DNA of 64,000 nucleotides, from positions 901 through 64,900 of IMG/VR virus record IMGVR_UViG_3300037839_000499; one strand, 5' to 3'. The notes beneath the pieces were generated by a model. It searched no databases. It was not told the DNA's origin and was given only the letters and a program-made list of their open reading frames with translations. Source of the stretch: a virus. Lineage: Duplodnaviria > Caudoviricetes. Of this stretch, positions 4,035 to 41,644 are shown in pieces. Position 1 is the stretch's first letter; each line of letters begins with the position of its first letter. The position numbers and the translations under genes are program-made.

Positions 4035-4038
4035 ATAT

Positions 4039-4992: not shown

Positions 4993-5002
4993 GGAGAAGG
5001 CG

Positions 5003-19000: not shown

Positions 19001-22000
19001 TAGCCCAAGCGGCCGTGGCGGCTGCGGCTGAAAAGGTGGGCGGAGGCTACTGGTATCACATTAACGACACTCAAGTTCCAGTTTTTGTGACTGGCTTACG
19101 GCTGAACATTAAGTATCCGCATGTTGTCGCTTCTCAGCGTATGCTTATCCAAAGCGCGGGGTTCAACCATCTCATGCCGGTTCCAATTTCCGCCAACCCT
19201 CTTTCTCGGTTGGCATCGGCCCAAGCCGCTTTCAATAATAACCCGCTCGAGCAGAACGAGCTTGGCATCGAGATGCCCCTTCTGGACATCACTCCGACTG
19301 GCCAAGACTCCGAGGCGGCTTTCTATCGCTCATTCCAGCAGACGGAAACGTATGCAGCTGCAAAAGCTTGGGAGAACCATCCTTTCGCACTCCGAGAAAA
19401 ATACATGAGCTTCGCTATGGATAGAGCCGGGTATAGGCCTGGATTCTTCAGAGTTAACCGCAAATTCTCAGACGGAAAGACGGTGAATAGTCTTTATTAC
19501 GACGGGAACACGATTATCGAGATGTCTCCTGTGCGTACCCGCGAGATTCTTTCCTTTGTGTCTGAAAAGACTGAGAACGCCCAGACCGAAAAAGAGGTAG
19601 TTGACGCATTTGCTGAGGCGTTGGATGTAACGCAGGACATCGACACAATAACCGATGAGGGCGCGGTAGCTACGGATCAAGGGCAAAAGCAATTTGTAGG
19701 CAAGATGAACAACCGCCGGCGCAACCAAGTTGTATCTGGTGCGTATGACCGCGAGCGCCAGAAGGCGATGCAACAAGACCACTTCGTTATTGCTGGCAAT
19801 CCCTTGGTGGCTGCAGATATGGCGACTAGGTTGTTTGGCCAGCAGTTAAATCACCGCATCATGCGATTCACTAATCAGGACGGAAGTGAGACAACTGGCA
19901 TTGTTGTTCCCGCCCAAGCCGAGTTCAGTCAGCTCAGGAAGCTTTCAGACGTAATGAATACCAAAGAGACAATTCAGCGTTCTGATGCCGAGAGGGTGCT
20001 GGACTTCCTGAATAGCACCATCACAAGACACCATAACGCAACGGAGGTCGTGTTTACGGACGGAGCCACAATTTCATACGCAACCACAGAGGCAACGGCC
20101 ATTGAGACACCCCATTCACTCAAATCGATAATCCCAAATCGAGTGTGGGAAATGGCGCAAGATCAGCTGGCCGACTTATCTGTTGTGGAGGAGGGAGGAG
20201 TCCCTGATGAGGTCAGAGCGGAGCTTGAGAAGTTAGTTCCTGGAGCAAAGGTATCGGCAGAGGGGCCATACATTGTTGTTGCAATGGGTGGTTTTGATGC
20301 CGGAAAATACATCGCTAAGAGGATGGCGAGGGCTTCCGACAGGATCGCTACTGGCGCAACGCCTATTGAAGGTTACGCCTATTCCGGCCCCCGCTCAGTT
20401 CAAATTCACGCCCAGCGGATTGGGGATGAAATCACCCCAGAGATATGGAACTACTACCGGATCGCCACCCAACAGACTACTGACTCAGATGGGGGCGTGG
20501 GGCCGTCGCCAGCAGTTCGAATGGTTCTACGAATGTTCCCGAATATGGATGCCTCGTATGTGGAGGATTCAGCTGTTTCTGGTGTTCTGAAAGCCATTAA
20601 AGCTCTTGCCGTAATGCGGACGCAGGATCCGGGCAAGTTTGCCGAAATGGAGGGATCCATGACTCCTGAAGGCGGAATACCCAAGAAGATTTTCTCCTAC
20701 ATGGTCGAAGCCGCCAAAAACAGCGTGCTTACGTCCTACCAAAAGTTTGGGCAGTACGAGGTTGACCCACCCGAGCAACAAGGGATGCAGATGCTTGAGG
20801 ATGAGGAAACCGTGGCCGAGGTTCTGGCGGGTAGGGCAACCGCATTTAGCGATGATGAGGGGCCGGACATCGTTACTCCCAAGGAGATAGAAGAGACTGA
20901 GTTTACCAAGGCCCTGCGTAGCGACATGGAAGCCGCATTCCAGATTATTGATCCACGCTTGGCCCAAGTGTTTGTCGCTCACAACCGAGGAATGACATTC
21001 GAGGCAATTGCAGATGAATTTGCGTTGCCACCGATTATCGGGAAGGACGGGAAGCAACGCCCAAACAAGCAGATGGCCCAGCGTATGTACGATGATGCGC
21101 TCCGAGCCTTACAAGACTTTGCTGGTGACAATAGCTTGTTCGCAACCAACTCGAGGCCACAAAAGCCTGTGAGTAGGGCATTGCGGCTCGCCATGGAAGC
21201 AGGGCTAATTCGACCCATGTCGATCAACGCACAGCGGATCTACACAACCGATTCTGAGGAAGACGGTGAAACAGCGAACCTTGTTCGGCAGTTCCGTAGC
21301 ACCCAGCTTGGGCAGGCCATTGCGGCGCTTCGTTCTGGACCGCAACCAGCCGGCAACCTCATCCGTGGGATTGCGGAGCCAGCAAACGAAAACAATAAGG
21401 CGATCCAAGCCTACTACCGGCTTCTTAGCCAAGCCTTGGTCAAGGGTATTGAGGCCAACCCATCGTCATTCCTTGGCAGGGCATCAAATACCGACGTAGT
21501 AATCGATGAATCGATCCCAACGTCTCACTTCTCGTCGAGCAAAATGGATCCGTTTACGATGGGAATTATCCGGCTTCACCCTGGTCAATTGAGTCCGAGG
21601 GTAATTCTGCATGAATTTGTTCATGCCTTTACCGCTCAACTCATTGGAACCGAAATCATTAAGAATTTCCAACCTCGCCGTGGAGAGATGACTGGATCGA
21701 AGTATCGCGAGGCATTAACCACTTACGCCAACAAGCAACCCATCGATACAGACAACCCAACAGGGGCGATCCCCGCGATGCAGAGCCTTGTGAAGGCATA
21801 TCTTGGGGCATTGAAGTACGCCAAAGACGATGCCGGTCAACCGATTGAGAACGCAATCTTTGGTTCTGGCCTAACTGCCAGCTTCTCAATCACGTTGCCT
21901 ATGCACCGAGCGAGCTATGCCGGCGGATTGCATATGTCGGCGCACATTGATGCGTCCAATTCAAAGGCTATCTATGACCACTTTACCGAACTTGGGCTTG

Positions 22001-25000
22001 AGGGTAAGGCTGGAGTGCCGAATGACACTCTTGATGCCTATGTAAATAAGAATGGTTCGACCAATGACTTCTTTATCTCCAGTCCGGCCGGATCGCTTGC
22101 TGGCCTAGAGGTTGAGGCTGACGGAAAGCTCATACTTACCCCTTCTGGGCTAGAAAAGCTAAGGACTCAGAATGTAGCCCCTTCGGCATATTCAACTTAC
22201 ACCATACGCTCCTCGAAGCCTGTGTTTAAGCAGAGGATTCTGGGCGTGGTTGGCGATCCCACGAAAAGGGCGATGTCGATTCTCTATGGATTCAAGAACA
22301 TTGACGAGTTTTCCGCTGAAACGATGAGCAACCCTTCATTTGTGGGTATGATTGCTGGTCTGGATGTGCCGAAAGGGCTAACCAAGACCCCGCATGACTA
22401 TCTGATTGAATGGTTTGATCAGCTGGAGTCAGATCTGCTGAACCTAAAGGGTGGAATGAAGGGAGCCGTGAGGAACATGGCTGCCGGAACCCTAGTAGGG
22501 TCGACGGCTGGATCCTTGATGGACATCGGATCGATCAAGATTACCGATTATCAGACTATTCTTGGGAATCGAGAGTCAGCCACAAGGTCAGAATCTCCCA
22601 CACAACAAGGACAGCTTTTTGCCCAAAGGATCGGCGGAGATAGGCTTGAGGAGAAGATTACAAACACAATTCAGGCGATGCCAAGGGGCGGCCTAATTAC
22701 TACTACTAAAGGGGCATTCTCGATACGGCCGAGGGTTGGGTCGGATGGTTGGGTAACGAGGGGAATCGACAATCCAAGAAGGGTTATCACTAAGACCATC
22801 TCGGCCGCCGTTGCTGGGTTGCCCGGGATCCGCGGTATGGTGCAAGTGGTTAAGTCCTACACCCGCGATGACGTAGCCCCTTCGGATCTAGGCGGTGAAA
22901 AGAACCCATTAGCCTTGGAATACAAGAAGTTAACCGATATTCCGACCCCCACCGATGAACAGCGCAAGCGGATCTCAGAAATCGAGAGGTTTGCCACCAA
23001 GTACAAGATGCCAGGAGTCGGCGTTCAGCAAGCCTTGTTCGACACGGGCAAATACGCTGGGTCGCCCAATCGGCCAACGGGATCTACTCCATCCGTTATC
23101 GAGACTCCGCCAGCTAGGTTTATCGCACCCCAAATGGAGCTTGCCCTTAATGCCCAACGGATTGAGCCAAGCGGATCCCAAAAAATCCTTTCTGAAATTA
23201 ACCAGCTTCGCGCGATGCGTGACTCTGGCCAGTCCTACAACGAGAAGCGGTTGCGCCAACTAGAGTTTACTGCCAGCCAAACCAAGCTGGCCGGGTATCA
23301 GCCGGAAGGCCAGCTGATGGCCACAGAGACAAGCCTCAATCCAACAGTTCAGCCCTTTGCGTTAGAGCAAGAAACAAGGCCGGCAATGGTGCAACAGAAT
23401 TTGTTTGCTCAAAGGATTGATTACGACGACAACGGAAACCCTGTGGTTACGCCAAAGCCACTTACCCCAGAAGAGTTAATGTCTATCCGAGCCGACCTCT
23501 TGGGTGACTTGGGTAAAGATGCCCCAGAAGTGATGGCGATGTATCGCAAGTTACGTATCCAGCCATCTGGGGTTAAGACGCTGGGTGGAGTCTACCAAAC
23601 AGGCGAAAACGGCGGGCCGGCGAGAAGCTTGGCAAACCCTGGACAAACAGCCGAACAGCGGGACTTGATTAACGCGATGGATGCGATGCGTTTCCAGCGT
23701 GGGCTTGGGATTAAGCAGGATTCGGCAGTTGAGGACGCCGCCACTCAAATTCTTTCTACGCCGGAAGGTCGGCTTGGAGTCCAAGAGGCCGTTCTATCAG
23801 GTCAGTCTCTAAACACGGAAACAACATTAGCGGCCATGAAAATGGTCGGAGAGATGGTGCAAGAGGCAATTACCAGCGAAAACGCTGAGGACTTAGGTAA
23901 GGCATACGCTATGACGTACATGTATCGAGAAGCCAGATCCGAGACCGCTCGCTCCCTTCGGATTGGCTACGACAGGCTAATGACGCCAGCTCAGCGACAC
24001 TCTGAGTTTCTTATGGCCGTAATGGTTCAGCCTGAGCGAAACAGGATTCTTGAACTAAAGTATTACCCAACCGAATCCCAAAACCGAAGCGATATAAGAA
24101 GCTTGCAGGCAACACTTGAGGATTTGCTTAAGGAAAGAAACGACTTACTAGGCTCCCAAGGCAACTCGGAAGAGATGGCGGCCGTGCTGGAACAGAGGAA
24201 CGCCGAGATTCAAGCAATGCAGGCGCAAATCGCGGATTTACAGAATCGCGTGACTCGAGAGCAAGTTATGGCCCAAGAAGCACAAGAGAGGTTGGCGGAT
24301 GTAAATCGCACGCTCGCTGGCCTTGGAACAAGTCTCCAGCAGTTAATGAAGGAGTCCGAGCTTTCAGAAATTAGAACAGGACGGCCGGCTACCCAAATGC
24401 TGGATCAAGTGAGGCTTTCTCCAAAGGAACGTGAGGCGGTGGAGCTGATTATGATCGGGCATGACCCGGTTTCAGTTTCCAAGCAAACCAAAGTTAAGCT
24501 GGTGGATATTAAGGGTGCGATGGATGTCATGCGGTCTGAGGCCAAAAGAAGGTTTAGCCAGATCGCTCAAAGCGGGATGACCCGAGACCAGCTCCGCAAG
24601 GCGCTCCTCGAAAACGCAAGAACGGACGCTTCGATGAGGCAGATATTGGCCCAGCGGATTCCAGACAATCAGCCGTTGGGCGAGGAAGAGGCGATGGAGG
24701 AGATCTACAACATGCTGGGCCTTACGCTTACCCCAACTGGTGACTATAAGTGGGCTGAGCGCAAGGGCAAAAGCAACCTCTTCGACCTACGGAAACCAGA
24801 ACATATCGTGGTGCTTGCAAAATCCATTCAAGCCGGGAAGCCAACAATCGACGGAACTATATTTGAGGCTTACGTCGCAAGCATTTTCAGCGGATTCGCA
24901 ACGCAAATTGCAAATATGGCGATGACCCCACTTTCCCCAATCACAACATCTGTTCATCGCGGATTTCAAGCGCTTACTACATATCTTTTGGGCAAGGCCG

Positions 25001-26967
25001 GAATCAATCAAGAAGTCGAAGTTGACAAGATCGACAATCGGCAAGTCCCACTCTTTAAGCCAGGGACAGCATACAATAGTCTATCAGATGCGGCAGAGGG
25101 GGCAGGCCGTGAGATTGGATATATATTGAGAGCAGTTGTTCCGGCATTCTTCGAGGCGGTAACAATGGGTAAGTTGGCTTGGGCAACCGAAGCAGGATTC
25201 TTTGACTACAATGTTTCTGGAGTTCTTGAGGACATCGATGATCCACAGACAAGGTTTGGTGCGTTCCTGCAGAAGTACGGAAGAACGAGAAAGACAAGAA
25301 TACCCGGAAAGCTCGGGAAGGCGGTTCGCGCTCCGCTTCGCGGTCTGCTTGCTGCCGATGAATTCACGAAGACGTTCAGGGCATACATGAATGTTGGCGC
25401 GCATGCCTATCGGTTAGGCAAAGCCTCTGGTCTTAATGGTGCGGAGTTAAATTCATTTGTAGAAAAGGAGATTAATGGGGCTGGCTCAACAAGCTGGATG
25501 CTTGCGGCCCGCCGAGCAACCAAGGAGACATTCACATTCCAATTAAGGCCAGAAAACGGCCAAGTCCGCTCTGTCGGCGACTTTGCGGCCGAAAACGTAG
25601 GGCGACTCTCAGATTTTTACGCAAGCCTTGAAAACGCCGCAACTGCCATGGACGGGAATCCGCTATTTATGCCAGCTAGGGCGACCCTTCGCCTCATCCA
25701 GTCGTTTTTGGTTTTAATCAAAAGCCCATTCAATATTTACCGCGAAGGTTATGCCTACACGGCTCCTGCCATACTTAACTTAATTTCAAGAGCTAGGAGG
25801 TTTAAGGAGACCGAGGTTGCTGGCAAGAAAATCAAGTATCTGCCCGTGACCGAGTACGACGACTTTGTTGAAAGGCTAACAAGCTTTGGAATCGGAACTG
25901 CAATACTTGCTGGTTTCTTAATCGGGGGCGCAGAAGGAGATGACGATGACGACAAGAAGCTCTTGCTTGTTACCGGGACGCCAGATCCGCTGGCTCCAGG
26001 AGGACAGCGGGTAACTAGGTTTGGCAACTCTCCATTCAAAATTATTCTTAGGGGCGATTGGCTTAAGAGCCTCGGCGTTACTACTGGCGAATACGTCCTC
26101 GACTACAGCCGAGTCGAACCCATTGGAACCTTAATTTCGGCTAATATTAATATCGCCAGAACGATGAAGGAGACCTTCAGAAACCCAAGCCAAGCTGGAT
26201 CTGCTGGCGCAAATCTATTTAAGGACTATTTCTTGGCTCCCGGAACAAGAACCTACGGCAAAGCATGGCGCGATATGGTGAGCCTGTTTGATTTGGAGGG
26301 AAGCGGATGGCAAAGGGTCTTAAGGGACAAGTTATCCGCCATAATGTCGCCCAATTTATTCAAGCAACCGTTTGGTGGGATCCCCGAATATGAGAAGGAT
26401 GTTTATAATCCAGATCCATTAGCCGCAGATGCTCTTGCATTTGCGATCCTGCCAGGACTCGGAGACCAGCTAGGGATTCCTGATCGGCGCACATTCGAGG
26501 GCATGAAAGTTCCCAACCCAGTTCTGTACGATGGGGCCGGCCCAGCTGCAAGGTCAGTCGCTCGGCTATTGCCCGGACGATTCGGCGAAGGATTCGGGAA
26601 GACAGATTTCGAGAAATTCATAGACAACTACAATCGTCAACACCCTGACAAAAGGTGGAATCCAGACCTTTCTCGACCAGATCGATTCTTTGACGACAAA
26701 TATCTTCGCCAAAGGGTTGCCTTGACCAACTCCGAGTACGAGATGGTGCTCAAAATGGCCGCACCCAAAATAAAGGCCTATCTGTATGGGAATAGCGCGG
26801 AGAGCGGTACTTTATCTCAAAAGGACTTATCTGGCTTTATTCCAGAAGACCGCAAGGACGTAGTCCAAAGAACGATTTCTGGATTCTATCGGGATGCTAA
26901 GAAAGCAGTTGTGGATGCGCGGCACAGAAGAGAGCTGAAGGCTTTACAGTCTAGCCCCGCTAAGTAG
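10021..26967 (+). CDS. Giant polyvalent internal-virion/ejection protein (ParB-like, Strawberry-notch SF2 helicase, sigma70-like, zincin metallopeptidase domains)
   Basis: 5648 aa between terL and portal; PIVIW..ITGRHR (ParB-like), GHEMGIGKG / IDEAH / SRSGSTGINAH / QVAARVNRTGQ (Sno helicase), sigma region 2/4 patterns, LHEFVH..DEFSAE (zincin). Confidence 0.85.
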   Translation: MSLPDFGGTGVDGKPEDSFGGPEPEYVPRTRSEARSLEQEQTGKIKEATRAYNYGSEQALEEAGIKYKTDEQGFVQPRYEPNNEFGRSVEFGTSEFKDPITEETRQIDKTGKVKPKKRQNVTYKSGDANNPNFPNPSRIYRVYTREQDAGVEDPNQPFAATKAEDIGSAFDLQGVSDQGISSLAKEAVRKNRQYELSSAKSVLDARGQQLDVESETFKSQIDTLNQTPIPDWQPDGDKMDPAIAAEVGGKADAKTRQNVAARIGMSRDQKIGEVSSQLAEKNKERIRNRALQVELQSQMSFDEGESIYDNRVQQLLKNGAKQEDIDKDPLIGAIREGLTNIQKPVLPLSEVFKDPTLAPQAIYETRASQREKARIEAEGRLAKEKATEFLKPFIEQAADTSISYTTLAGRRNRLSSVYNKLLEDADSSDTNQKGSGLNLRAQAAGYAEAIGVLDDQLGRIGKQALIAQDGAKIQGEFAKEKEQRVQQELKTRLTKLEQETALKVEKFKQRKELEDGAFMGPPAPEDIPPSTPTQGSPTQPTTPSQPESPTSWFQGGLNNLFSKDTMRQATRGYFELNQKFASGTYLAAANSLRIRGQEMPTMGSEFVGAMTTSPSMPAKIMAVLGMVDRQFGGKLHNKAANYFEESATAAKENETAIRNEKFLGAEPVSPEWRESDVGQVVKSLTELPFYIGTTMINPAVGFIATFGTSYDEAIQNQLNSGVRNPDHVTALAEAIPVAAAESLGNMVQLGLAKSLGRKFIQNLESMTARSLRGLFASAAMKIGGGSAFEGMEEGVQTWWSNMIAKHIGKFDPNRPLDKDVWKSIYVAMWAGGAGVTVMGGGTVVLTGAQNALNERGLRKQVDEMRTATEDIPLNGWEDWGNKLPEQVLDPGLAESFGEIGADLDEQQGQFLVGLADSIKGAPFRRLLELGKSIDESINQPPALQSRAAGILTGAKNEQLKGEADLYAERANLAAIMQGEAQLRLRVAREIGTLPTDPVDGGLDQQATGLIAAKVLFGSSGVTQEELKAKYRGMPIIQTDSNGIQVPSEFVKQDIFSQAPTMSEQLKGFLSRVDQAMAKAEVSGGASAEPPEPPKPEQKPTGKPRQVDQANLKTPRQIAEASAKTGSPALMARLEGTTPDERWASVESKMKNLVTAIGSKGLDVKFLSDDRQEASSAGFDVDNKTLRINLNRKAFMDMEGTDPEANNRYVREEIAHLGDIAEGALDAKRQGKDNYREHWEQQRATMLSRIFNVAKQDKAVEESVVAAANLYLENVFSKPMTDDGGNKFSSTSAPMSATMDALVRGEVMPQFKTISDVQRYMVRNGVGGEKGVRAMPLFMAEMLRMLKTYGQPQTESRNYLRTAAKTTGGSRAIIKIISDYLRKVYKALFSIKDSLVKADPQLAEDLSNLLSEIDDVLSDSPSQPRVEINPRSPNEPQAPEAKPRAPPETGENVPQPPVEPPVIAPQGGGQAVGTIAPPATRIVPRGRMVSVTYDKLGSGGVESVTEQVQLTKEQELEWEKGEANYRQSAEMAKRTKDPAMRSSRMQGAGYEWAKRKREITGRLHYREQMEKEAREKKNYIGKKVGIQAEEGILSATIIGNPFGRVKVRLEDGQELTVLPDQLTSAPEIEQDEPTTIPSGQVVDFPVNKIVVNDKIQQFKKKAKKDSGVVKALTGEYQATPKNPIVIWERNDGVFEVITGRHRLDLAKRNNMATVPAQIVKESEGWTQEKAETFDAEANIRDGQGDLEDFAYYFRKSGISQQDAEVKGLLRDDGKGKAGFLIANEATEDVYAGLMAGKVDAGMAVIIASGAPKSVGAVNESIQRAALNYVTSERVTQQDVRNFISGMIATFADKGPSESQSDLFGSDDSALELMKQRAKKASKIQRDVRQKLNAMLNFKKLSREGQAQALEDVGVTIAVGEDSVAKVNQKITDLQAELASWERWATDPEKVGQIDQMPNIKAQRINIQAQRIDDTQEGGVDSNSEERTQSGTSEGIQPTGSGGGISPTGEVATGQPGELQNVEDGRGRPLSGSVDQRLDGGSGENQGLADNAVPASVRISRGPQPNLGALQSLQRREPRVEVGRTANVDDAERVLGEGLETQVPWVPVIQGSGVSLKTFAPAGIADEMRRNLERIDRERGGLEQYVANALGLADTSELYRVINPKAGSRLNKEQVETIAAALDRMDAGKSCIIGHEMGIGKGRPCAAILYVAYLRGQIPIFFTANSRTLYPTLMDDFKDLGFKMDPFITDQDFESVMGDGSVLTNKGKNPKALFDSIAASKKLPTGKTMIMTTWEQARLKDVNAVLNALAPNAVFVIDEAHKGTGDSLSSEVARGILKKAKGVTFSSGTAIKNLEAMRLYFPFTSVNRAIPSVRRLNQLLKKFANPLLELMNRGLVSAGEYIRYQRGLTHNGEPVPFTALALRTGPQVVEVNETANEIAGELKQIQAGPFMKQLRGVLMPLVKTKAAAMIEDKPELAATLTIKVEPYPMKSQFHNIANIMVLASKIPEISKQIKALVDQGNKVFVASDATGEAAVQELLDDISLETDPKNASFADALSRYTDKLKYITITAKVGPKGRQQTLFRQKLDLNRAQEEYPEAVERAQQVLQQIADAKSMIESSRNILGRLGISPMDSLRQQLESVQIPSVEISGRSATVMPDGTREKRTELDQDRMASLSMFNNLDDMNVISVSRSGSTGINAHNSPKFNSQKDRVFFLLQPSPNVVDTVQVAARVNRTGQLTAPHLYMAYAEELPAEKRMMALTAKKMSKLGASSTGGQKLDMSETFGEDMHNAYGDLAMANVLARDETFRQEFQSRHNEYFPGSNEEEVRANLMKGAGNGDVFRRFEHMLIIMPLDIYSQISEQIRDEYNEIVETEKMAGRYNLTSEKMDYKAVLVDDMPGMAPYSPRREGEPDIGTAQPTQLRRYRFTNPTPPPASEQLIKDIDKVKADTAQLVQKYNESAEKYLSDRVNLITSRSRLDPNARNLLIQAITRKMAVAQAAVAAAAEKVGGGYWYHINDTQVPVFVTGLRLNIKYPHVVASQRMLIQSAGFNHLMPVPISANPLSRLASAQAAFNNNPLEQNELGIEMPLLDITPTGQDSEAAFYRSFQQTETYAAAKAWENHPFALREKYMSFAMDRAGYRPGFFRVNRKFSDGKTVNSLYYDGNTIIEMSPVRTREILSFVSEKTENAQTEKEVVDAFAEALDVTQDIDTITDEGAVATDQGQKQFVGKMNNRRRNQVVSGAYDRERQKAMQQDHFVIAGNPLVAADMATRLFGQQLNHRIMRFTNQDGSETTGIVVPAQAEFSQLRKLSDVMNTKETIQRSDAERVLDFLNSTITRHHNATEVVFTDGATISYATTEATAIETPHSLKSIIPNRVWEMAQDQLADLSVVEEGGVPDEVRAELEKLVPGAKVSAEGPYIVVAMGGFDAGKYIAKRMARASDRIATGATPIEGYAYSGPRSVQIHAQRIGDEITPEIWNYYRIATQQTTDSDGGVGPSPAVRMVLRMFPNMDASYVEDSAVSGVLKAIKALAVMRTQDPGKFAEMEGSMTPEGGIPKKIFSYMVEAAKNSVLTSYQKFGQYEVDPPEQQGMQMLEDEETVAEVLAGRATAFSDDEGPDIVTPKEIEETEFTKALRSDMEAAFQIIDPRLAQVFVAHNRGMTFEAIADEFALPPIIGKDGKQRPNKQMAQRMYDDALRALQDFAGDNSLFATNSRPQKPVSRALRLAMEAGLIRPMSINAQRIYTTDSEEDGETANLVRQFRSTQLGQAIAALRSGPQPAGNLIRGIAEPANENNKAIQAYYRLLSQALVKGIEANPSSFLGRASNTDVVIDESIPTSHFSSSKMDPFTMGIIRLHPGQLSPRVILHEFVHAFTAQLIGTEIIKNFQPRRGEMTGSKYREALTTYANKQPIDTDNPTGAIPAMQSLVKAYLGALKYAKDDAGQPIENAIFGSGLTASFSITLPMHRASYAGGLHMSAHIDASNSKAIYDHFTELGLEGKAGVPNDTLDAYVNKNGSTNDFFISSPAGSLAGLEVEADGKLILTPSGLEKLRTQNVAPSAYSTYTIRSSKPVFKQRILGVVGDPTKRAMSILYGFKNIDEFSAETMSNPSFVGMIAGLDVPKGLTKTPHDYLIEWFDQLESDLLNLKGGMKGAVRNMAAGTLVGSTAGSLMDIGSIKITDYQTILGNRESATRSESPTQQGQLFAQRIGGDRLEEKITNTIQAMPRGGLITTTKGAFSIRPRVGSDGWVTRGIDNPRRVITKTISAAVAGLPGIRGMVQVVKSYTRDDVAPSDLGGEKNPLALEYKKLTDIPTPTDEQRKRISEIERFATKYKMPGVGVQQALFDTGKYAGSPNRPTGSTPSVIETPPARFIAPQMELALNAQRIEPSGSQKILSEINQLRAMRDSGQSYNEKRLRQLEFTASQTKLAGYQPEGQLMATETSLNPTVQPFALEQETRPAMVQQNLFAQRIDYDDNGNPVVTPKPLTPEELMSIRADLLGDLGKDAPEVMAMYRKLRIQPSGVKTLGGVYQTGENGGPARSLANPGQTAEQRDLINAMDAMRFQRGLGIKQDSAVEDAATQILSTPEGRLGVQEAVLSGQSLNTETTLAAMKMVGEMVQEAITSENAEDLGKAYAMTYMYREARSETARSLRIGYDRLMTPAQRHSEFLMAVMVQPERNRILELKYYPTESQNRSDIRSLQATLEDLLKERNDLLGSQGNSEEMAAVLEQRNAEIQAMQAQIADLQNRVTREQVMAQEAQERLADVNRTLAGLGTSLQQLMKESELSEIRTGRPATQMLDQVRLSPKEREAVELIMIGHDPVSVSKQTKVKLVDIKGAMDVMRSEAKRRFSQIAQSGMTRDQLRKALLENARTDASMRQILAQRIPDNQPLGEEEAMEEIYNMLGLTLTPTGDYKWAERKGKSNLFDLRKPEHIVVLAKSIQAGKPTIDGTIFEAYVASIFSGFATQIANMAMTPLSPITTSVHRGFQALTTYLLGKAGINQEVEVDKIDNRQVPLFKPGTAYNSLSDAAEGAGREIGYILRAVVPAFFEAVTMGKLAWATEAGFFDYNVSGVLEDIDDPQTRFGAFLQKYGRTRKTRIPGKLGKAVRAPLRGLLAADEFTKTFRAYMNVGAHAYRLGKASGLNGAELNSFVEKEINGAGSTSWMLAARRATKETFTFQLRPENGQVRSVGDFAAENVGRLSDFYASLENAATAMDGNPLFMPARATLRLIQSFLVLIKSPFNIYREGYAYTAPAILNLISRARRFKETEVAGKKIKYLPVTEYDDFVERLTSFGIGTAILAGFLIGGAEGDDDDDKKLLLVTGTPDPLAPGGQRVTRFGNSPFKIILRGDWLKSLGVTTGEYVLDYSRVEPIGTLISANINIARTMKETFRNPSQAGSAGANLFKDYFLAPGTRTYGKAWRDMVSLFDLEGSGWQRVLRDKLSAIMSPNLFKQPFGGIPEYEKDVYNPDPLAADALAFAILPGLGDQLGIPDRRTFEGMKVPNPVLYDGAGPAARSVARLLPGRFGEGFGKTDFEKFIDNYNRQHPDKRWNPDLSRPDRFFDDKYLRQRVALTNSEYEMVLKMAAPKIKAYLYGNSAESGTLSQKDLSGFIPEDRKDVVQRTISGFYRDAKKAVVDARHRRELKALQSSPAK

Positions 26968-36183: not shown

Positions 36184-36864
36184 ATGACAGTCGCGCAAGC
36201 CATTGATTCGATCTATGAAGTGTTCGGCATTCCGAATAATGCCGCTGCTCCAGAGATCATGCGTCGCCGAATCTTCAATGATCTAAACTCGGCCATGCAG
36301 CTCCTGTGGTCTAAAGGCCATAGGTTTCTTGATTTTTATACACGTAAAGAAATTACCGTAACCATTTCCGCGGCTACCGATAGCTCCGCCCTAAGTGACG
36401 ATATTCAGTCTGTCATCGGCCCCGTCCGCAGGGTGTCAGACAATATTCTCCTGCGCCCTATTTCAAGCAGGGGTGAATTTGAGGCGTTTCACTCCATATA
36501 TGCAGGATCTCTGACGGCCTTAACTAATTCAACCCCACAGGCGTACTTTATCGATGCTATTCGCCCAGATAGCGGGGCAGATGCCACATCGCTAAAGATC
36601 TTTGTTGTCCCCAAGCCAACCACAAACGTCAGCGTGTACATGGCCGTAGCCCTAAAGGCTCCAGCATTTACCATCAACGACTACTCGGCCAGTCCGTCCA
36701 CCAGCATTCCGATCCCGCATAACTACGCGGAAACCCTGCTTTTGCCGATTGCCAGATATTTGTCTTCATCGTCTCTTTTCTTTGCGGATAAATCCAAGCA
36801 ACGCGAGCCACAGCTTAAGTCTGAATATGATCGTGCTCTGCAAACACTCACGGAGTCTGCGTAA
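36184..36864 (+). CDS. Head-tail adaptor protein
   Basis: Helix / beta insert (PQAYFI, IFVVPKP) / IPIP..Y..LL helix layout; post-capsid position. Confidence 0.7.
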   Translation: MTVAQAIDSIYEVFGIPNNAAAPEIMRRRIFNDLNSAMQLLWSKGHRFLDFYTRKEITVTISAATDSSALSDDIQSVIGPVRRVSDNILLRPISSRGEFEAFHSIYAGSLTALTNSTPQAYFIDAIRPDSGADATSLKIFVVPKPTTNVSVYMAVALKAPAFTINDYSASPSTSIPIPHNYAETLLLPIARYLSSSSLFFADKSKQREPQLKSEYDRALQTLTESA

Positions 36865-37346
36865 TGCCTCCCGTAATCATTCCGGAAAACAACAAGGTTT
36901 CGGACATTCTTCGAGGAGTGCCGGAGTCAGTTAATCCAAGCGGGATCGCTGGAGGATATGTCGCATCGTCCTCGTTTGCTCCTTTAGGCGTATCGGCATA
37001 CACGATTCCGCCGGCAGCAACAACCTTCAATATAAATACAACGGCCACAGCGACCAAGTCGTATGAATCAAACTTTCTAACATCTTGGAGCACCTATGCT
37101 ACATACCAAACAACCACTCAATCTACGACCTTTCCTTCTTTCTTTATGAATGGCACTAAGGAGTCATTCAGAAGCGCATCGACGGTGGTTGATGTGTTTG
37201 CTTACGCGTACACAGCTACAGGAACTAACCCAGATGACCCGTCTGGAAACTTTTCGGCAACTACGTCCGCTTTGGGGACTTATGTCTTTAATACTTATTT
37301 AGTCGGATGGTGGACTTTCGCTGGATTTACGAGGTCAATCGCATGA
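36864..37346 (+). CDS. Thr/Ser-rich putative virion protein
   Basis: Translationally coupled, T/S/A/F/Y-rich. Confidence 0.55.
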   Translation: MPPVIIPENNKVSDILRGVPESVNPSGIAGGYVASSSFAPLGVSAYTIPPAATTFNINTTATATKSYESNFLTSWSTYATYQTTTQSTTFPSFFMNGTKESFRSASTVVDVFAYAYTATGTNPDDPSGNFSATTSALGTYVFNTYLVGWWTFAGFTRSIA

Positions 37347-37564
37347 CAAGGCACGACCTTTTGAATGACATCCACGCTAGGGTGGTTCGGCTTGAGACAC
37401 TAGCTGAGGGTAATAAGGAGGTTCTGTCAGATCTTCAAAAGAAGGTGAACCACCTTGAGCATGTCCGTGGAGTCATCGCCACGATGGGCGGCATACTGGG
37501 GGCAATCGCTGGACTTATCGGAAGCATAATAGTGAATCTATTTACTGTGAGGAATGGCCAATGA
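37343..37564 (+). CDS. Small coiled-coil plus C-terminal TM protein (XhlA/holin-like)
   Basis: RVVRLE..VNHLE coiled coil, then hydrophobic GILGAIAGLIGSIIVNLF. Confidence 0.55.
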   Translation: MTRHDLLNDIHARVVRLETLAEGNKEVLSDLQKKVNHLEHVRGVIATMGGILGAIAGLIGSIIVNLFTVRNGQ

Positions 37565-38424
37565 CATCAATGCAACTAGCCCAGCAAGTGTTGTCATACT
37601 CAATACTTCCCCAGGATCCAGCGTCTATTCCGGCCGATGCGGCCGCCACAATCGTAAACTGCATTAATAAGGGGTTCTCAAGATACTTCATTTACGCCCC
37701 ATCGAGCCGAAAGACTACGTTTGTCTCAAGCTACGTATTGGCTCCGACATCGCTGACGGCCACTTTCACAGCAGGGTCAGCAACTTTTTCTGGGAGCGGA
37801 CTCTCTGGATCGACTAGGATCGGTGACACCCTATACATCGGGGGCAAGAAGAAGGTATTGGCAACCGGAGAAAGCCTTCGGGAGCCATGGGATATGGGGT
37901 CTGGGCAGGCATCTGGGACTCTGTACGATGATGCGGTTGCATTGGCAGACCCCATCCGAAGAGTAGAGGGATCCATCATCTGGAATGAGACCAGAAGGCT
38001 CGAGTTCCTGCCGGAAGCACCAATTGTAGAAGATCAGGTAAAGCTGATCAATTTCAGCGGAGAACCACAATACTTCACGATTGAGAATCTGGGAGACACG
38101 GTTGGAGGCGCAGTAAGAGCCTTGCTTCGGATATTCCCGCTTCCTGCAACCGCTGGAACGATTCGGTTTACGGCCCAGATAAATCCACAGCGTCTATCCA
38201 TTTTTGACCTACAAAGCGCAGTAACAATTTACATAAACCCAACTGATTTGGATGCGTTTGCTCTGCCATTCATCATTGAGGAGCTTGCTCTTACAAAGTA
38301 TTGGCCTGACAAGGGAGACAAGAACCTAGCGAGCAAATCATCCGAAAAGGCTGAGGCTCTGTTAAAGGCATTCCAAGAATCAACTGGAGGCGGGTCGCGC
38401 GTAATGACGCCCGGAAACTTCTAA
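37561..38424 (+). CDS. Second adaptor-like virion protein
   Basis: Same layout as 36184 (MT..Q, GEPQYF, LRIFPLP). Confidence 0.6.
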   Translation: MTSMQLAQQVLSYSILPQDPASIPADAAATIVNCINKGFSRYFIYAPSSRKTTFVSSYVLAPTSLTATFTAGSATFSGSGLSGSTRIGDTLYIGGKKKVLATGESLREPWDMGSGQASGTLYDDAVALADPIRRVEGSIIWNETRRLEFLPEAPIVEDQVKLINFSGEPQYFTIENLGDTVGGAVRALLRIFPLPATAGTIRFTAQINPQRLSIFDLQSAVTIYINPTDLDAFALPFIIEELALTKYWPDKGDKNLASKSSEKAEALLKAFQESTGGGSRVMTPGNF

Positions 38425-39164
38425 TGATTGTAATGCCGTTATCCTATTCGGGCCAAAACAGACTGGCAAATGACATTAATACGATCTTATCAAAGATCCG
38501 CGTGGGTTGCGCTATGGCGAGGCAAGACAGCCAGCTAAACCCACCAACCAACATGATGGTGGACTTGCCTGAAGGCATAGATTTCGAGATTACGGCAATT
38601 TACTCTCACCAAAATGCTGGATATGCAAGGCAGACTACCACTACGAATTCTGGGAATACTGTCAATTCTGGAACTAAAAATAATACTGGAAGCACTAACG
38701 AGTCGGAGGCGAACACGGAATCAGGAGCTGAAACAGGCGCAGATACAGAAAGAGGAACGGAAGGCAATTCTGCAACGGATAGGGTCTCCGGCTCATCCAA
38801 TAAAGCGCAAAACGAGTCTGGATCTGAAACTGGGGGTGACTCCAAGAGCGAGACTGGAACAGAGTCCGGCTCGGAAGGAGACAGCCGCAGCGAATCGGAG
38901 TCTGGTTCGATCTCTGAAAGTCAAAGTGATAGTAAGAGCGGAAGCATTTCTGAAAGTGAATCGGAAAGTGAGTCCGGAAGTGAGAGTGGCTCAAAAAGCA
39001 ATAGCCTAAGTGGGTCCGGAAGTGAGAAGACAAGCGGGAAGAAGGAGCAAGCAGCTGCCGTGGGTCGACAGGTTAAGACTTTTGAGGATGAAACTGGCGG
39101 GGCCGGACCTCAGCTCTCGTTCCCAGACAATTTACCGCCCCAAGGCGGTACTTCATGCACCTAA
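38424..39164 (+). CDS. Ser/Glu/Gly-rich repeat protein (paralog of 39704)
   Basis: N-terminal helix + DLPEGIDFEI, long SESESGS tract, ends SCT. Confidence 0.75.
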   Translation: MIVMPLSYSGQNRLANDINTILSKIRVGCAMARQDSQLNPPTNMMVDLPEGIDFEITAIYSHQNAGYARQTTTTNSGNTVNSGTKNNTGSTNESEANTESGAETGADTERGTEGNSATDRVSGSSNKAQNESGSETGGDSKSETGTESGSEGDSRSESESGSISESQSDSKSGSISESESESESGSESGSKSNSLSGSGSEKTSGKKEQAAAVGRQVKTFEDETGGAGPQLSFPDNLPPQGGTSCT

Positions 39165-39176
39165 CAGGAGAACCAT

Positions 39177-39707
39177 ATGGCATTTCAAGCAGTAGACATT
39201 AAGAACCAAAGCACAACAAACGAGGCTGATTGCCGTACAGACAGCAATACAAACTCAGGCTCGGAATCGAACTCCAACTCGGGGTCAAATAGCGGGAGCA
39301 CAAGCGGATCTAACTCTGGATCAAACTCTGGATCCAATAGCGGATCGGAGTCTGGATCTAATAGTGCAAGTAATAGCGGTACTAATTCATCGTCAAACAG
39401 CGGGAATAATAACGCAACTAACACGGGAACCATTACGGGAACTAATAATTCGACAGGGTCTAATAGTGATACAACAAGCGAAAGTGGATCTAATTCAAAT
39501 TCATCGTCAAAGTCCAACTCTTTAAGTAGGTCAAACTCTTCAAGCCGCTCCGCGTCGGCAATCAAGAGTGGGAGTCAAAGCGGAATCAGTAGCCAGAGTG
39601 CAATTACGAGTCAGAGCGCATCTAAAATACAGTCTGAGCGTGATGACATAGGATGCGTCATCCGATTCAGGGTTCCAATCGTGGTGCAATTCCCTGGAGA
39701 TCCATGA
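39177..39707 (+). CDS. Ser/Asn/Gly-rich repeat protein
   Basis: GGAG RBS; (SNSG)n tract; ends GCVIRFRVPIVVQF. Confidence 0.75.
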   Translation: MAFQAVDIKNQSTTNEADCRTDSNTNSGSESNSNSGSNSGSTSGSNSGSNSGSNSGSESGSNSASNSGTNSSSNSGNNNATNTGTITGTNNSTGSNSDTTSESGSNSNSSSKSNSLSRSNSSSRSASAIKSGSQSGISSQSAITSQSASKIQSERDDIGCVIRFRVPIVVQFPGDP

Positions 39708-40444
39708 TTATTGCCCCTGTCGCAGATCTGGATTTAGTAATTAGGGATACCTTGCGCGAGATTCGCAGGGGCATCGCAACAGCTCGAAGCGCAAACCAAT
39801 CAAACCCAACCGCAGGACTTATGGCGGATCTTCCAGAGTACGTGGATTTTGAAATACAAGTAATTACAGGCCATCAGGTACTCTCAAGGGACAGCTCCGA
39901 TACCGACTCTGGAACCACAATCAACAGCGATACCACAACCAACACGGATACCACTACCAACAGCGATACTAATAACGATAGATCTAATAATAACGACACG
40001 TCCACAGAGTCCACAAGTCAATCTCAGGGCGGGTCGAACAATAAAACTAGGAATGCGTCGGGTTCGTTAAGTCGTAACGCGCAAAACAACAAAACCTTAG
40101 CTGGGACCAGCTCTAGCTTCCGATTCATCTCAAAAAGCGGAAGTTCGAATGGATCGAAGAGTAATAGTCGCAGCGTTTCCAAGAGTGGATCCTCAAGCGA
40201 CTCCAGAAGCACTAGCAAGAGCGGATCAAAGTCTCGCAGTAATAGCGTTTCTGGATCTGGATCAAACAGTAAGTCCACAAGCCGAAGCATTAAAACCCTT
40301 AACAAGCAAGAGGCCGACAACGTGCGCGCGTACGGGGTGTTGGATGAGGCAACTGGAGACTATATTGGCACCGGCAACTCAAGCAACCCGTTCGGGTTCA
40401 ATTCTCTCAGCGGCCGCACCCCGGCCCAACCATCATGCGGATAG
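39704..40444 (+). CDS. Ser/Thr/Lys-rich repeat protein (paralog of 38424)
   Basis: N-terminal helix + DLPEYVDFEI, long SKSGS tract, ends SCG. Confidence 0.75.
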   Translation: MIIAPVADLDLVIRDTLREIRRGIATARSANQSNPTAGLMADLPEYVDFEIQVITGHQVLSRDSSDTDSGTTINSDTTTNTDTTTNSDTNNDRSNNNDTSTESTSQSQGGSNNKTRNASGSLSRNAQNNKTLAGTSSSFRFISKSGSSNGSKSNSRSVSKSGSSSDSRSTSKSGSKSRSNSVSGSGSNSKSTSRSIKTLNKQEADNVRAYGVLDEATGDYIGTGNSSNPFGFNSLSGRTPAQPSCG

Positions 40445-40818
40445 TCTTAATCGCCTTCCTCGCTCTGGCTGGGTGTGCGTCTCTGCCACCACCCAAGAAT
40501 CCTTCTTTTGACAGAACGTGGGTGTATCTGGACGAAGCAGAAAGAAACTCTTCGGGCGGGGTTAGTAACGCCATCAAGAAGGCCAAGGAGCAACTAGCGG
40601 CCGCGGAGCAGGCTTGCATGGATAACACCAAGCTGGTGGATCAGTACGCAAAGGATATTGCGGTGTTGCAGGGAAAGGCTGACTACTGGAAGGAAAAGCA
40701 GCGGAAAGCGTTGAAGGAGTTGTGGGTGTGGAGAGGATTACTCATTGGCGTAATCATATTCGCAGCCCGAGGGCCGATCCTATGGGGCATCAGGAAGCTT
40801 GTGGGGATACCTTGGTGA
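40435..40818 (+). CDS. Lipoprotein with C-terminal TM helix (unimolecular spanin-like)
   Basis: Lipobox LAGC at aa 11-14, coiled coil, C-terminal LWVWRGLLIGVIIFAA; first gene of the lysis cassette. Confidence 0.65.
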   Translation: MRIVLIAFLALAGCASLPPPKNPSFDRTWVYLDEAERNSSGGVSNAIKKAKEQLAAAEQACMDNTKLVDQYAKDIAVLQGKADYWKEKQRKALKELWVWRGLLIGVIIFAARGPILWGIRKLVGIPW

Positions 40819-41159
40819 ACTGGATTAGGAATCATCAAGGCGCTGTATCGCTGGTTATCAGCGTTTTAGCTTTTTGGTTTGGCGGAAGTGTAATTCAAGC
40901 CATAGATCCAACGGCCGGGCGGTATGATACTGGGGCATTGCATGGCCTAATAACCGGATCTGTGGCCTACCTTACGGCCGTGTGGCTGGCGTGGATGGTG
41001 CTTCAAATCGAGTGGCCGACACTTAATGAGCATATTGACCTTCAGAAGTGGTTGCAGGACTGGAGGGTAATCAGACCGGAACAAAGGGTATGGTTTACCC
41101 TTGCGGTTTGGGGTCTCTTATTTGCTGGGGGAATTACGTGCCTGCTGGGGTGGAGATGA
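40815..41159 (+). CDS. Putative holin (3 TM)
   Basis: Three hydrophobic segments; directly upstream of endolysin; GTG start overlapping the previous stop. Confidence 0.65.
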   Translation: MNWIRNHQGAVSLVISVLAFWFGGSVIQAIDPTAGRYDTGALHGLITGSVAYLTAVWLAWMVLQIEWPTLNEHIDLQKWLQDWRVIRPEQRVWFTLAVWGLLFAGGITCLLGWR

Positions 41160-41644
41160 GGATCTATGTTCTGGCGTATTTTCTGCTGGCTTCTTGGGTA
41201 TCGGCCAAAACGGACGACCGAGAGTCCGTCCTTGCCGTCGCAAGGCCCTTGGTGGGCGAGGTAGAACATGGCAACAATGCTGGAGAATTTGTCGAAAGGG
41301 TCTTGTCATCTGTTGGGCTGGGTGCTGGGAACCCTTGGTGCGCCGCTTTTAATTATTATGTTTTCGAAAAAGCGGGCTTTAAGGATCGAGTACCAAAAAG
41401 CGCGTGGTCTCCAGACTGGCTTAGAGGAGGCGAAAGGCGGCGCGTCGGGCATCCGGCGGACGTATTCGGCATATACTTTCCTTCGAGAGGCCGTATCGCC
41501 CATACGGGTATCGTCGAGATTCAGCAGGGGCCTTGGCTTACGACCATTGAAGGCAATACCAATGAAGCTGGGTCAAGGGATGGGGACGGTGTTTATCGGA
41601 AAAAAAGGTCGGTCAACTCGGTCATCTTAAAGACGTACCTATGA
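41156..41644 (+). CDS. CHAP-domain endolysin with N-terminal signal/SAR
   Basis: PWCAAF, HTGIV, TIEGNT motifs; MRIYVLAYFLLASWVSA N-terminus. Confidence 0.88.
   Translation: MRIYVLAYFLLASWVSAKTDDRESVLAVARPLVGEVEHGNNAGEFVERVLSSVGLGAGNPWCAAFNYYVFEKAGFKDRVPKSAWSPDWLRGGERRRVGHPADVFGIYFPSRGRIAHTGIVEIQQGPWLTTIEGNTNEAGSRDGDGVYRKKRSVNSVILKTYL

Follow-up and report, generated by a model that had tools for sequence, protein, structure and literature searches.

Low-complexity, serine-rich sequence is usually dismissed as disordered spacer. In an uncultured lake virus of the Caudoviricetes (IMG/VR record IMGVR_UViG_3300037839_000499), three neighboring genes, here called A, B, and C, carry such segments matched in length within two residues. 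This raises the question of what the three proteins build together. The DNA analyzed (the window) is 64,000 nucleotides long and covers positions 901 to 64,900 of the 64.9-kb record. An earlier note on this DNA had proposed that the genes divide one small fold among them and co-assemble into a long tail structure.

The A-B-C genes and their neighbors

Genes A, B, and C are all on the + strand, with head and adaptor genes on one side and a lysis cassette on the other; the genes around them encode capsid, adaptor, spanin-like, holin-like, and endolysin proteins. The features of the locus are as follows (window coordinates).

37307..37564, + strand: 85-aa protein, coiled coil and C-terminal transmembrane helix
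37561..38424, + strand: 287-aa protein, T7 gp11-type head-to-tail adaptor fold in an AlphaFold2 model; stop overlaps gene A start
38424..39164, + strand: gene A, 246 aa; N-domain, shaft, and C-terminal cap
38424-38621, + strand: gene A N-domain, residues 1-66; amphipathic helix, then candidate strand DLPEGIDFEITAI
residues ~67-214 of gene A, + strand: putative shaft, acidic Ser/Thr-x
39066-39161, + strand: gene A C-terminal cap, from R215; RQVKTFEDETG...SCT
39165..39176, + strand: A-B spacer, AGGAG inside; in frame
39177..39707, + strand: gene B, 176 aa; neutral shaft between an N-terminal strand and a C-terminal block
39177-39206, + strand: gene B N-terminal candidate strand, MAFQAVDIKN
39642-39704, + strand: gene B conserved C-terminal block, DDIGCVIRFRVPIVVQFPGDP
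39704..40444, + strand: gene C, 246 aa; paralog of A
39704-39886, + strand: gene C N-domain, residues 1-61, followed by a basic Ser/Thr-x shaft
40325-40441, + strand: gene C C-terminal cap, from R208; RAYGVLDEATG...SCG

Starts and stops are overlapping or closely spaced from the adaptor gene through A, B, and C, and the gene C start overlaps the gene B stop (ATGA). As the earlier note observed, A and B share a reading frame and are 12 nt apart; the frame is shared in all four close loci. Readthrough of the gene A stop codon is unlikely because the spacer has two in-frame stops in all three relatives compared and the AGGAG ribosome-binding site is kept in all four spacers.

Paralogy of A and C, also claimed from the start, is borne out by BLASTP (40% identity, 80 residues, E 7e-14) over the first ~75 residues. 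The motifs named for the two proteins are all there (DLPEGIDFEI and FEDETG in A, DLPEYVDFEI and LDEATG in C), and both have a Cys two residues before the C-terminus. A and B have no sequence similarity; gene B does terminate in DDIGCVIRFRVPIVVQFPGDP. In each protein Ser or Thr occupies alternate positions for more than 100 residues, and a single phase is kept. Between the end motifs, the Ser/Thr share is 73% in A, 87% in B, and 74% in C at the favored parity and 9, 12, and 20%, respectively, at the opposite parity. In B the favored-parity share is 83-98% in 11 of 13 phages, and the phase relative to the anchor is always the same. Pro is absent from 23 of the 24 shaft segments tabulated. The A and C proteins of a more distant clade have lost strict alternation (only 0.11-0.68 Ser/Thr at the favored parity), and their sequence makes a beta shaft less evident; the length coupling described below still holds there. 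Net shaft charge in the window is -14 in A and +8 in C. The shafts of locus L013 carry +5 (A) and +2 (C), both shafts of L014 are acidic, and most family members are acidic.

The AlphaFold2 model of the 287-aa protein has a mean pLDDT of 78.4, and its top eight Foldseek matches in PDB are chains of phage tail or portal-tail complexes (probability 0.97-1.00). VIA-align superposes 162-197 residues, most of the chain, on 15 podovirus tail or portal-tail complex chains with Z of 8.0-12.6; the partners include cyanophage A4, Pa223, GP4, SU10 (7z47_A), T7 (6r21_N), and N4. The protein has no Pfam match, and judging from the model it folds like a T7 gp11-type tail adaptor. A homolog is directly 5' of the A gene in all related loci long enough to tell. 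The 85-aa coiled-coil protein has a homolog between B and C in the more distant clade and may be part of the A-B-C module. In a short-form clade, two adaptor genes are followed by A (104 aa in locus L041), B (72 aa), and a tail-fibre-like gene; scans with P0056 and P0053 gave no further short-form loci. No nozzle gene was recognized in the window by PHROGs or Pfam, no protease family was detected by Pfam or PHROG in the flanking genes scanned, and a PDB sequence search with the neighboring 943-, 512-, and 335-aa proteins gave no match.

Read comparison showed that three other lake-water DNA runs contain fragments identical to the window. One RNA library, which possibly contains DNA, gave two 151-nt contigs (38960-39110 and 39128-39278), and these do not imply transcription. 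No length variants were seen among the matching reads and contigs.

A and C have no Pfam or PHROG match at E up to 0.1, and B has one borderline PHROG match (E 0.096) to a family of unknown function; no needle or fibre model is among the Pfam and PHROG matches of the three. A profile search of 1.84 billion representatives returned 51 clusters, all of the same unnamed family and none with a Pfam-annotated protein, and a second profile search returned 32 matches, none with a Pfam domain. An ESM Atlas search with the A N-domain gave no usable match. Searching with the B C-terminus found one close relative only, and B homologs were therefore read from the loci. No prophage or host relatives were found among 185,579 genomes, no cultured phage was found to carry the genes, the N-domain profiles have no sequence match in PDB, and no homolog has a solved structure. 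The literature covered on serine-rich low-complexity phage virion proteins, Pepco, and Trypco2 does not describe these proteins. The A-B-C family is without a Pfam, PHROG, PDB, or cultured-phage representative.

Length coupling and a probable chain register

The A-B-C set recurs in three viral and 34 metagenome loci. Length analysis used 15 distinct related loci with complete triads. Duplicates (L004, L005, L007, L012, and L030) were left out of the counts, and C-gene counts exclude L009, L010, L019, and L036, where the reading frame is broken within 115 nt of the contig end inside the repeats. The distance between end motifs ranges over 88-286 residues in A, 75-273 in B, and 86-284 in C, with pairwise r of at least 0.9996; in L015, a further A-B pair, the distances are 306 and 293. 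A exceeds B by 13 residues in 10 triads and by 11 in the other five, and it exceeds C by 2 in nine triads and by 0 in six. With partial loci added, A is longer than B by 11 or 13 residues in all 17 pairs, and C is longer than B by either amount in 19 of 20. The one exception, L023 on a 3.2-kb contig, is 10 residues off. Whole-protein lengths are also correlated (r = 0.98 for 17 A-B pairs and 0.99 for 20 B-C pairs). Length changes between sister loci in A, B, and C, respectively, are (12, 12, 12), (6, 6, 6), (18, 18, 18), (4, 4, 3), and (138, 134, 141). None of 100,000 permutations gave length differences spread as narrowly as those observed.

Parity is conserved together with length. The B distance is odd in all 24 unique B proteins (18 distinct values), and the distance in proteins with the N-domain is even in 73 of 79; of the six that break parity, at least two (P0034 and P0052) have an extra segment within the N-domain. 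Distances in the triads shift only by two-residue steps, and they have no period of 3. The repeat sequence itself is not conserved and may be SE, SGSN, SK/SR, TGTN, NQNS, or a ~200-residue (TG) run, depending on the phage, and insertions are local duplications specific to one gene. The A-B-C set thus recurs with conserved ends and with lengths that co-vary far beyond chance.

Insertions between sister loci indicate how the chains may be aligned. Compared with the sister locus L001, the window has one 12-residue insertion in each gene.

38658..38693, + strand: insertion in A, residues 79-90; 32-43 residues after DLPE
39552..39587, + strand: insertion in B, residues 126-137; 19-30 residues before DDIGC
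39914..39949, + strand: insertion in C, residues 71-82; 29-40 residues after DLPE, within an 18-nt tandem repeat

In three sister pairs, the A and C insertions lie just past the N-domain, whereas the B insertion lies just before the C-terminal block. The A/B offset is 13 in the window, which is the A-B length constant of that clade. It is 11, again the clade constant, for L028 and L029 (81-86 in A, 70-75 in B), and 14 against a constant of 13 for L020 and L039 (26-43 in A, 12-29 in B), a pair with just 53% identity in A and C; all these positions are uncertain by a few residues within repeats. C insertions are at 29-40 and 82-87, adjoining those of A. A parallel register would demand offsets of -94, -42, and -87. 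The indel positions fit a single linear register in which B would run antiparallel to A and C. With B antiparallel, the extended register would set its CVIRF strand opposite the IDFEI strand of A, so that the two halves would complement each other as the earlier note had suggested. The Cys residues would then sort to both shaft ends, as an antiparallel arrangement predicts.

Because lengths co-vary exactly, parity is kept, and compensating indels are mirrored, it appears that A, B, and C assemble together in register, in line with the co-assembly first proposed. The evidence suggests that A, B, and C zip side by side into a long beta-stranded rod or tube, a construction not described before. 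We consider it probable that they form a tail appendage whose beta shaft consists of three register-locked chains. The three would be late virion proteins, zipped residue for residue, with A and C parallel and B antiparallel to both. One end would be capped by the N-domains (helix plus strand) of A and C with the C-terminal strands of B (CVIRFRV and IVVQF), and the other by the R....FD.DTG...Cys motifs of A and C with the N-terminal strand of B. Pro-free Ser/Thr-x repeats would form the shaft, with small hydroxyl residues lining one face of each strand. Repeat length would set shaft length and drift fast by slippage; once one gene changed, the other two would change by the same amount, in two-residue steps. 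The unit would most likely be mounted on the upstream gp11-type adaptor as a needle, fibre, or tube of a short tail.

Length coupling, parity, mirrored indels, and a conserved gene order are observed; other parts of this explanation are more indirect. We infer the beta conformation and the cap contacts from sequence, and from gene position alone, between the gp11-type adaptor and the lysis genes, we infer that the proteins belong to the virion as an appendage. A three-stranded sheet with two polar faces would have no obvious source of stability unless it is closed or stacked. AlphaFold2 applied to the short-form A homolog (104 aa, 17-row alignment) predicts an N-terminal helix only, at residues 7-30, with a mean pLDDT of 59.8, too poor for a fold search. 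Complex prediction with the short A, C, and B proteins of L003 (165, 160, and 96 aa), each with an alignment, gave ipSAE of 0.16 and 0.15 against a mark of 0.32, with no control runs.

Matched length persists here despite full replacement of the sequence and a roughly four-fold change in length. It is length that has co-evolved, not residues, and the topology, two chains up and one down, is revealed without a structure. If confirmed, a heteromeric beta shaft of tunable length would be a new construction principle for a virus appendage and a clean test system for the stability of long beta structures without a hydrophobic core. Covariation of length and parity may also be a general method for finding partners among repeat proteins.

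Other readings of the assembly

A sharper form of the preferred three-chain shaft, and the one the earlier note had in mind, is a barrel. Several A-B-C units (e.g., 6 or 12, following adaptor symmetry) would close into a beta-barrel like that of Pepco/Trypco2, with very long strands and amphipathic helices at the base, giving a Ser/Thr-lined nanotube that serves as tail tube or trans-envelope DNA conduit. We regard closure of this kind as possible but well short of probable. The N-domain has the expected amphipathic helix followed by a strand. The strands of a barrel must be equal in length, which would explain the length coupling. T7 encodes its nozzle after the gp11 adaptor; A, B, and C occupy that position in a window where PHROGs and Pfam recognize no nozzle. 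Contact between adjacent units would be favored by an acidic A and a basic C in the window's clade, but L013 and L014 show that this charge pattern is not general. The roughly four-fold variation in shaft length (75-293 residues) is hard to square with a fixed periplasmic span, a uniformly small Ser/Thr face suits close packing no less than it does a wide lumen, and no sequence link to PF19631 appeared at any threshold tried. A precedent is Pepco, which has 117 aa and a basal amphipathic helix and assembles into barrels of 9-10 subunits that resist SDS (bioRxiv 10.1101/2025.11.14.688446). Carried furthest, this idea makes A-B-C the unit of a self-measuring, Ser/Thr-lined barrel nanotube, tens of nm long, that would replace the nozzle or tail tube as DNA conduit and sit on the adaptor through a gene-split Pepco-like cap; we put it forward tentatively, as an unlikely outcome. 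If true, tube length would be written in three low-complexity genes edited together in two-residue steps. A phage tail would then be built and sized in a new way, and designable protein nanotubes would have a natural template.

The same three-chain assembly might instead belong to an internal head or ejection set, stored unfolded in the capsid, passed through the tail, and zipped outside. In P22- and T7-like gene orders, ejection and core genes come after the adaptor and nozzle genes. Chains without Pro or a hydrophobic core could pass a narrow channel, and the small coiled-coil/transmembrane protein accompanies the module. Ejection proteins gp20-24 of SU10 are likewise encoded downstream of the tail genes (PMC9509320). 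The short-form pair, however, sits between adaptors and tail-fibre-like genes, no membrane-active or peptidoglycan-degrading domain was found in A, B, or C, and large length variation would be more typical of external appendages. We judge an ejection role unlikely.

Less likely still, the repeats could be disordered tethers between the same two end complexes, with lengths matched since they span an equal distance. Tethers would need a minimum length, not equality within two residues across 75-293, and they would not be expected to conserve parity, exclude Pro, keep one Ser/Thr phase over more than 100 residues, or show mirrored compensating indels. These features make the reading improbable in our view, even though disordered low-complexity sequence typically has this composition, the repeat sequence is unconserved, the structure AlphaFold2 predicts is limited to a helix, and the only database matches (staphylococcal Ser-Asp stalks) are compositional.

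Pairing of the A/B (or B/C) coding regions as a long RNA or DNA hairpin, whose two arms would give mirrored indel positions, is rejected as highly improbable: 38424-40444 contains 0 inverted repeats, blastn between the shaft regions gives minus-strand matches of 7-10 nt only, the best mirrored complementarity including G-U (0.437 for A/B and 0.442 for C/B, at offsets far from the protein register) is no complementarity that accounts for length coupling when set against maxima of 0.440 and 0.428 in codon-shuffled controls, and three matched partners and a two-codon step would be left unexplained.

Comparison with known systems

Trypco2 (PF19631) was the family that the earlier note named for the proposed fold. 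This homology was not upheld: when the N-domains of A and C, the C-terminus of B, and the short L003 proteins were run against the model (78 positions, cut-off 24.2 bits), hmmscan gave no match at E up to 10. The 64.9-kb record, searched in six frames with this model, also gave 0 matches up to that E value, a result that HMMER filters, which may drop very weak matches, qualify. Relatives in which the halves are fused, which the note had suggested looking for, did not turn up among the 76 proteins retrieved within the length limits of the search; none of 59 pairs an N-domain with a B-type (RFxVP-type) C-terminus, and the others were read or, judging by length and identity, were homologs of A, either close or short-form. 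Trypco2 and Pepco are single small chains of about 80-120 aa; here A and C contain the helix and first strand, and the strands that might close the fold belong to B. Neither a trypsin- or caspase-like protease nor a defence locus was found in the flanking genes scanned. Judged by sequence, membership in Trypco2/Pepco is not supported.

There are still likenesses to Pepco, in which a small N-terminal amphipathic helix is followed by a beta strand and neighboring chains form a very stable sheet or barrel (bioRxiv 10.1101/2025.11.14.688446). Both systems would have a helix and then a strand, a fold completed by further strands, and assembly with adjacent chains, and the proposed contact between IDFEI of A and CVIRF of B resembles the strand pairing described in the earlier note. 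However, Pepco has no HMM or profile similarity to A-B-C, is one 117-aa chain rather than three genes, and has no low-complexity insert. It is a bacterial defence protein whose hallmark neighbor is a trypsin- or caspase-like protease (PMC7159879), whereas A, B, and C are phage late genes next to a tail adaptor and lysis genes.

Podovirus needles and fibres are closer in context. The P22 gp26-type needle, the SU10 gp18 needle, and the SU10 gp12/gp13 long fibres are elongated three-chain appendages whose genes lie 3' of the adaptor gene and which attach to the adaptor or nozzle (PMC9509320). All are homotrimeric, with parallel chains folded as coiled coils, beta-prisms, or beta-helices, whereas A-B-C would combine three different chains, one of them antiparallel, in a low-complexity shaft.

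MSCRAMM adhesins (ClfA, SdrC/D) also have Ser-x dipeptide repeats of variable length. NCBIfam MSCRAMM Ser-Asp models align to the repeat part only (E 6e-8 to 9e-14), and because their 24-50 bits compare with curated cut-offs of 999-2500, the match is compositional only and membership is rejected. These adhesins are single-chain flexible stalks on cell walls.

The T4 gp37 tip needle domain and the anthrax protective-antigen pore stem have beta strands that follow the long axis and in which small polar residues alternate. Each is encoded by one gene and has a fixed length of 10-20 nm, without the multi-gene length coupling of A-B-C. Molecular rulers, such as the lambda tape measure protein, injectisome YscP, and flagellar FliK, set the length of a structure by polypeptide length, and indels alter the measured length proportionally. 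In those systems a single chain measures a separate polymer; in A-B-C the three chains would measure each other, and the shaft itself would be the structure.

Genome setting of the A-B-C genes

The virus record is linear, 64.9 kb long and estimated to be complete, and the window covers 64.0 kb of it; the phage was found repeatedly in lake-water metagenomes. The window encodes a large terminase, an SU10-type portal (PF23899, E 1.9e-25) and a major capsid protein (phrog_334, E 6e-27), for which 50,697 deposited phage genomes gave distant matches only. Three Ser-rich genes, here called A, B and C, lie between adaptor genes and lysis genes.

Features of the window around A, B and C
36184-36864 (+), SU10-type adaptor (Pfam SU10_adaptor, PF24175, E 4e-7)
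36864-37346 (+), 160-aa gene, located after the first adaptor gene and before a small TM gene
37561-38424 (+), second adaptor-type gene, 287 aa, recognised by fold only
38424-39164, A, 246 aa
39177-39707, B, 176 aa
39704-40444, C, 246 aa
40435-40818 (+), lysis cassette, resembles a unimolecular spanin (lipoprotein signal, membrane helix at the C-terminus)
40722-41159 (+), lysis cassette, three hydrophobic segments, holin-like; start codon uncertain, listed ORFs overlap
41048-41644 (+), lysis cassette, CHAP-type endolysin (phrog_9589, E 5e-18); start codon uncertain, listed ORFs overlap

The model of the 287-aa protein (mean pLDDT 78.4) matched podovirus tail and portal-tail chains, among them those of SU10, T7, N4 and cyanophage A4 (Foldseek probability 0.97-1.00 in the top 8 matches; VIA-align Z 8.0-12.6 across 162-197 residues). 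By fold this protein is adaptor-type, and the A-B-C module thus comes after two adaptor-type genes. Two such genes (323 and 287 aa) also occur in the short-form clade, relatives with very short A and B. No gene of the window was recognised as a nozzle gene; T7 carries its nozzle gene after gp11. The 160-aa gene is a variable accessory gene, without a counterpart in the related loci L001 and L002 and 110 aa long in L003.

A single 5648-aa ORF (10021-26967, +), with the terminase region on one side and the portal gene on the other, has weak ParB-like matches (E 1e-4). It also contains a helicase segment of the P-loop/ResIII type and a domain known from the C-terminus of Strawberry-notch-type helicases (PF13871, E 1.2e-17), and it resembles the very large multi-domain proteins packaged by some phages as a defence against host restriction. 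A DNA-invertase-type serine recombinase (1927-2553, +; PF00239, E 2e-42; phrog_125) is encoded immediately upstream of three genes that weakly match tail or minor-tail proteins (2772-5881, +), and together they may form an invertible host-range switch. At the left genome end, a sulfotransferase-like gene (348-974, +; phrog_3347, E 9e-11) scores slightly under the cut-off for Pfam Sulfotransfer_2.

A, B and C are tightly coupled: the stop of the upstream gene overlaps the ATG of A, the B stop overlaps the C ATG, and the end of C in turn overlaps the gene that follows. A and C share 40% identity over their first 80 residues (E 7e-14), and B resembles neither. All of the motifs named in the earlier note were found. 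Between the conserved ends, Ser/Thr occupies the favoured parity at 73% (A), 87% (B) and 74% (C) and the opposite parity at 9-20%, and this phase runs without a slip over >100 residues. Searches of Pfam, PHROGs and NCBIfam gave only alignments that reflect composition, to staphylococcal Ser-Asp repeats and with scores far under the cut-offs. Two 151-nt contigs from one lake metatranscriptome library, which may contain DNA, are identical to the A end and A-B junction (38960-39278); such matches do not prove that the genes are transcribed.

A word-based search identified 12 close homologs of A. The profile of the N-domain, the conserved N-terminal region of A and C (amphipathic helix, then strand), retrieved 51 clusters from 1.84 billion representative proteins, none with a Pfam domain; neither it nor a short-form homolog had a match in any of the 50,697 deposited phage genomes. 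All members have the N-domain and a polar low-complexity middle, and most carry the C-terminal motif R-x4-[FL]-[DE]-x-x-[TS]-G followed by at least one Cys. Contig scans yielded 3 viral and 34 metagenome loci, and HMMs and motif searches over ORFs gave a constant gene order: a conserved 287-289-aa protein, an N-domain gene, B, a second N-domain gene, and a lipoprotein with a C-terminal membrane helix. In the more distant clade, an 84-91-aa coiled-coil/TM gene follows B and precedes the second N-domain gene. The short-form clade has A (104 aa) and B (72 aa, ending GCKIAFSVKIRGGFP) without C, flanked by two adaptor-like genes on one side and tail-fibre-like genes on the other; a monomer model of its A contained helix only.

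Coupled lengths and parity

After removal of duplicates and four contig-end artefacts, 15 distinct complete A-B-C sets (triads) were compared. Protein lengths range over 165-361 (A), 96-294 (B) and 160-370 (C) residues, with correlations of r = 0.969-0.994 and slopes of about 1; none of 100000 permutations gave a spread of length differences as small as observed. In close sister phages, all three genes change length together.

Length changes and positions of extra residues in sister phage loci (A and C counted after DLPE, B before DDIGC)
Window vs L001: A, B, C (12, 12, 12); A 32-43, C 29-40, B 19-30
L028 vs L029: A, B, C (6, 6, 6); A 81-86, C 82-87, B 70-75
L020 vs L039: A, B, C (18, 18, 18); A 26-43, C 32-47, B 12-29
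L013 vs L014: A, B, C (138, 134, 141), despite near-identical upstream proteins

The lock is exact when distances are taken between conserved anchors, which were DLPE and the C-terminal motif's Arg for A and C, and Met1 and DDIGC for B. Ten triads have an A-minus-B difference of 13 and the other five one of 11; A minus C is 2 in nine and 0 in six, and r is >= 0.9996 over B distances from 75 to 273. Partial loci gave 13 and 13 for A-B pairs, and 13, 13, 11 and 11 for B-C pairs with one outlier. In this pair, the sole mismatch found (L023:379-2020, on a 3.2-kb contig), B is 10 residues shorter than predicted from C, so that C minus B is 21 instead of 11; the pair may represent an intermediate that is tolerated, or a repeat may have collapsed in assembly. 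Repeat sequences are unrelated from phage to phage (SE, SGSN, SK/SR, TGTN, NQNS or a TG run). In L013, the C-type protein (2934-4046) contains about 200 residues of nearly pure (Thr-Gly) repeat, its partner A has a 12-residue SKSVSDSTSNSR repeat and B has SNS/SDS repeats, and each is about 135-140 residues longer than in sister contig L014. The conserved feature is length, not repeat sequence.

The B distance is odd in all 24 unique B proteins (18 distinct values), and the N-domain protein distance is even in 73/79, with six exceptions; no regularity modulo 3 was present. Length therefore changes in steps of two residues, which is the step of a beta-strand repeat and not of a helix, a polyproline/collagen-type helix or free coil, and we infer a beta conformation for the Ser/Thr-x repeat middle (shaft). 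Pro is absent from 23 of the 24 shafts tabulated. In the distant clade, strict alternation is lost in A and C and kept in B (83-98%).

Trivial causes were also considered. The insertions are local duplications whose sequence differs in each gene. Nucleic-acid pairing was rejected: the A-B-C region has 0 inverted repeats, and mirrored nucleotide complementarity of shaft-coding regions is at the level of codon-shuffled controls. Readthrough from A to B is unlikely, with two in-frame spacer stops in 3/3 relatives compared and AGGAG kept there in 4/4 sequences. Relatives keep a genome size of 64.2-65.3 kb irrespective of shaft length, so the shaft length is independent of capsid size.

Orientation and the proposed shaft

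Indel positions are mirrored in the three sister pairs where indels could be placed. The A-minus-B offsets (13, 11 and 14) match the clade constants (13, 11 and 13) exactly in two pairs and to within one residue in the third. A parallel register would require offsets of -94, -42 and -87. Therefore, B runs antiparallel to A and C in one linear register. Extended into the ends, this register would place B C-V-I-R-F opposite A I-E-F-D-I, with hydrophobic residues facing each other and Asp53 facing Arg, and Met1 of B opposite the conserved Arg of the A C-terminal motif. The complementation of A and B strands postulated in the earlier note matches this extension, with the cap contacts themselves still presumptive. 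Cysteines would also sort, A Cys29 with B GC at one end and the C-terminal Cys of A and C with B Cys19 at the other.

A-B-C is a real, conserved three-gene module coupled in length, parity and orientation; we found no description of such coupling in the literature. It is best explained as the beta shaft of a tail appendage, locked in register (A up, B down, C up), with beta conformation, cap contacts and virion location as presumed elements. The beta-barrel tube first suggested is possible but unproven, with closure and stoichiometry likewise presumed. In SU10, long trimeric fibres are attached to the adaptor, and the nozzle bears a protruding needle made of three chains (PMC9509320).

Comparison with Trypco2/Pepco

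The earlier note likened A and B to a Trypco2 fold split between two genes. The name Trypco2 was given to a small protein that occurs together with trypsin-like peptidases (PMC7159879); the phage module differs in having no protease neighbour. A PF19631 match was absent, profile searches gave no bridge, and a fused single-chain form was not found among retrieved homologs, so membership fails all tests run. The analogy between Pepco and the phage caps is attractive: a 2025 preprint equates Trypco2 with Pepco and describes a protein of 117 aa, with an amphipathic helix at its base, that assembles into SDS-resistant beta-barrel pores (9-10-mers; 10.1101/2025.11.14.688446).
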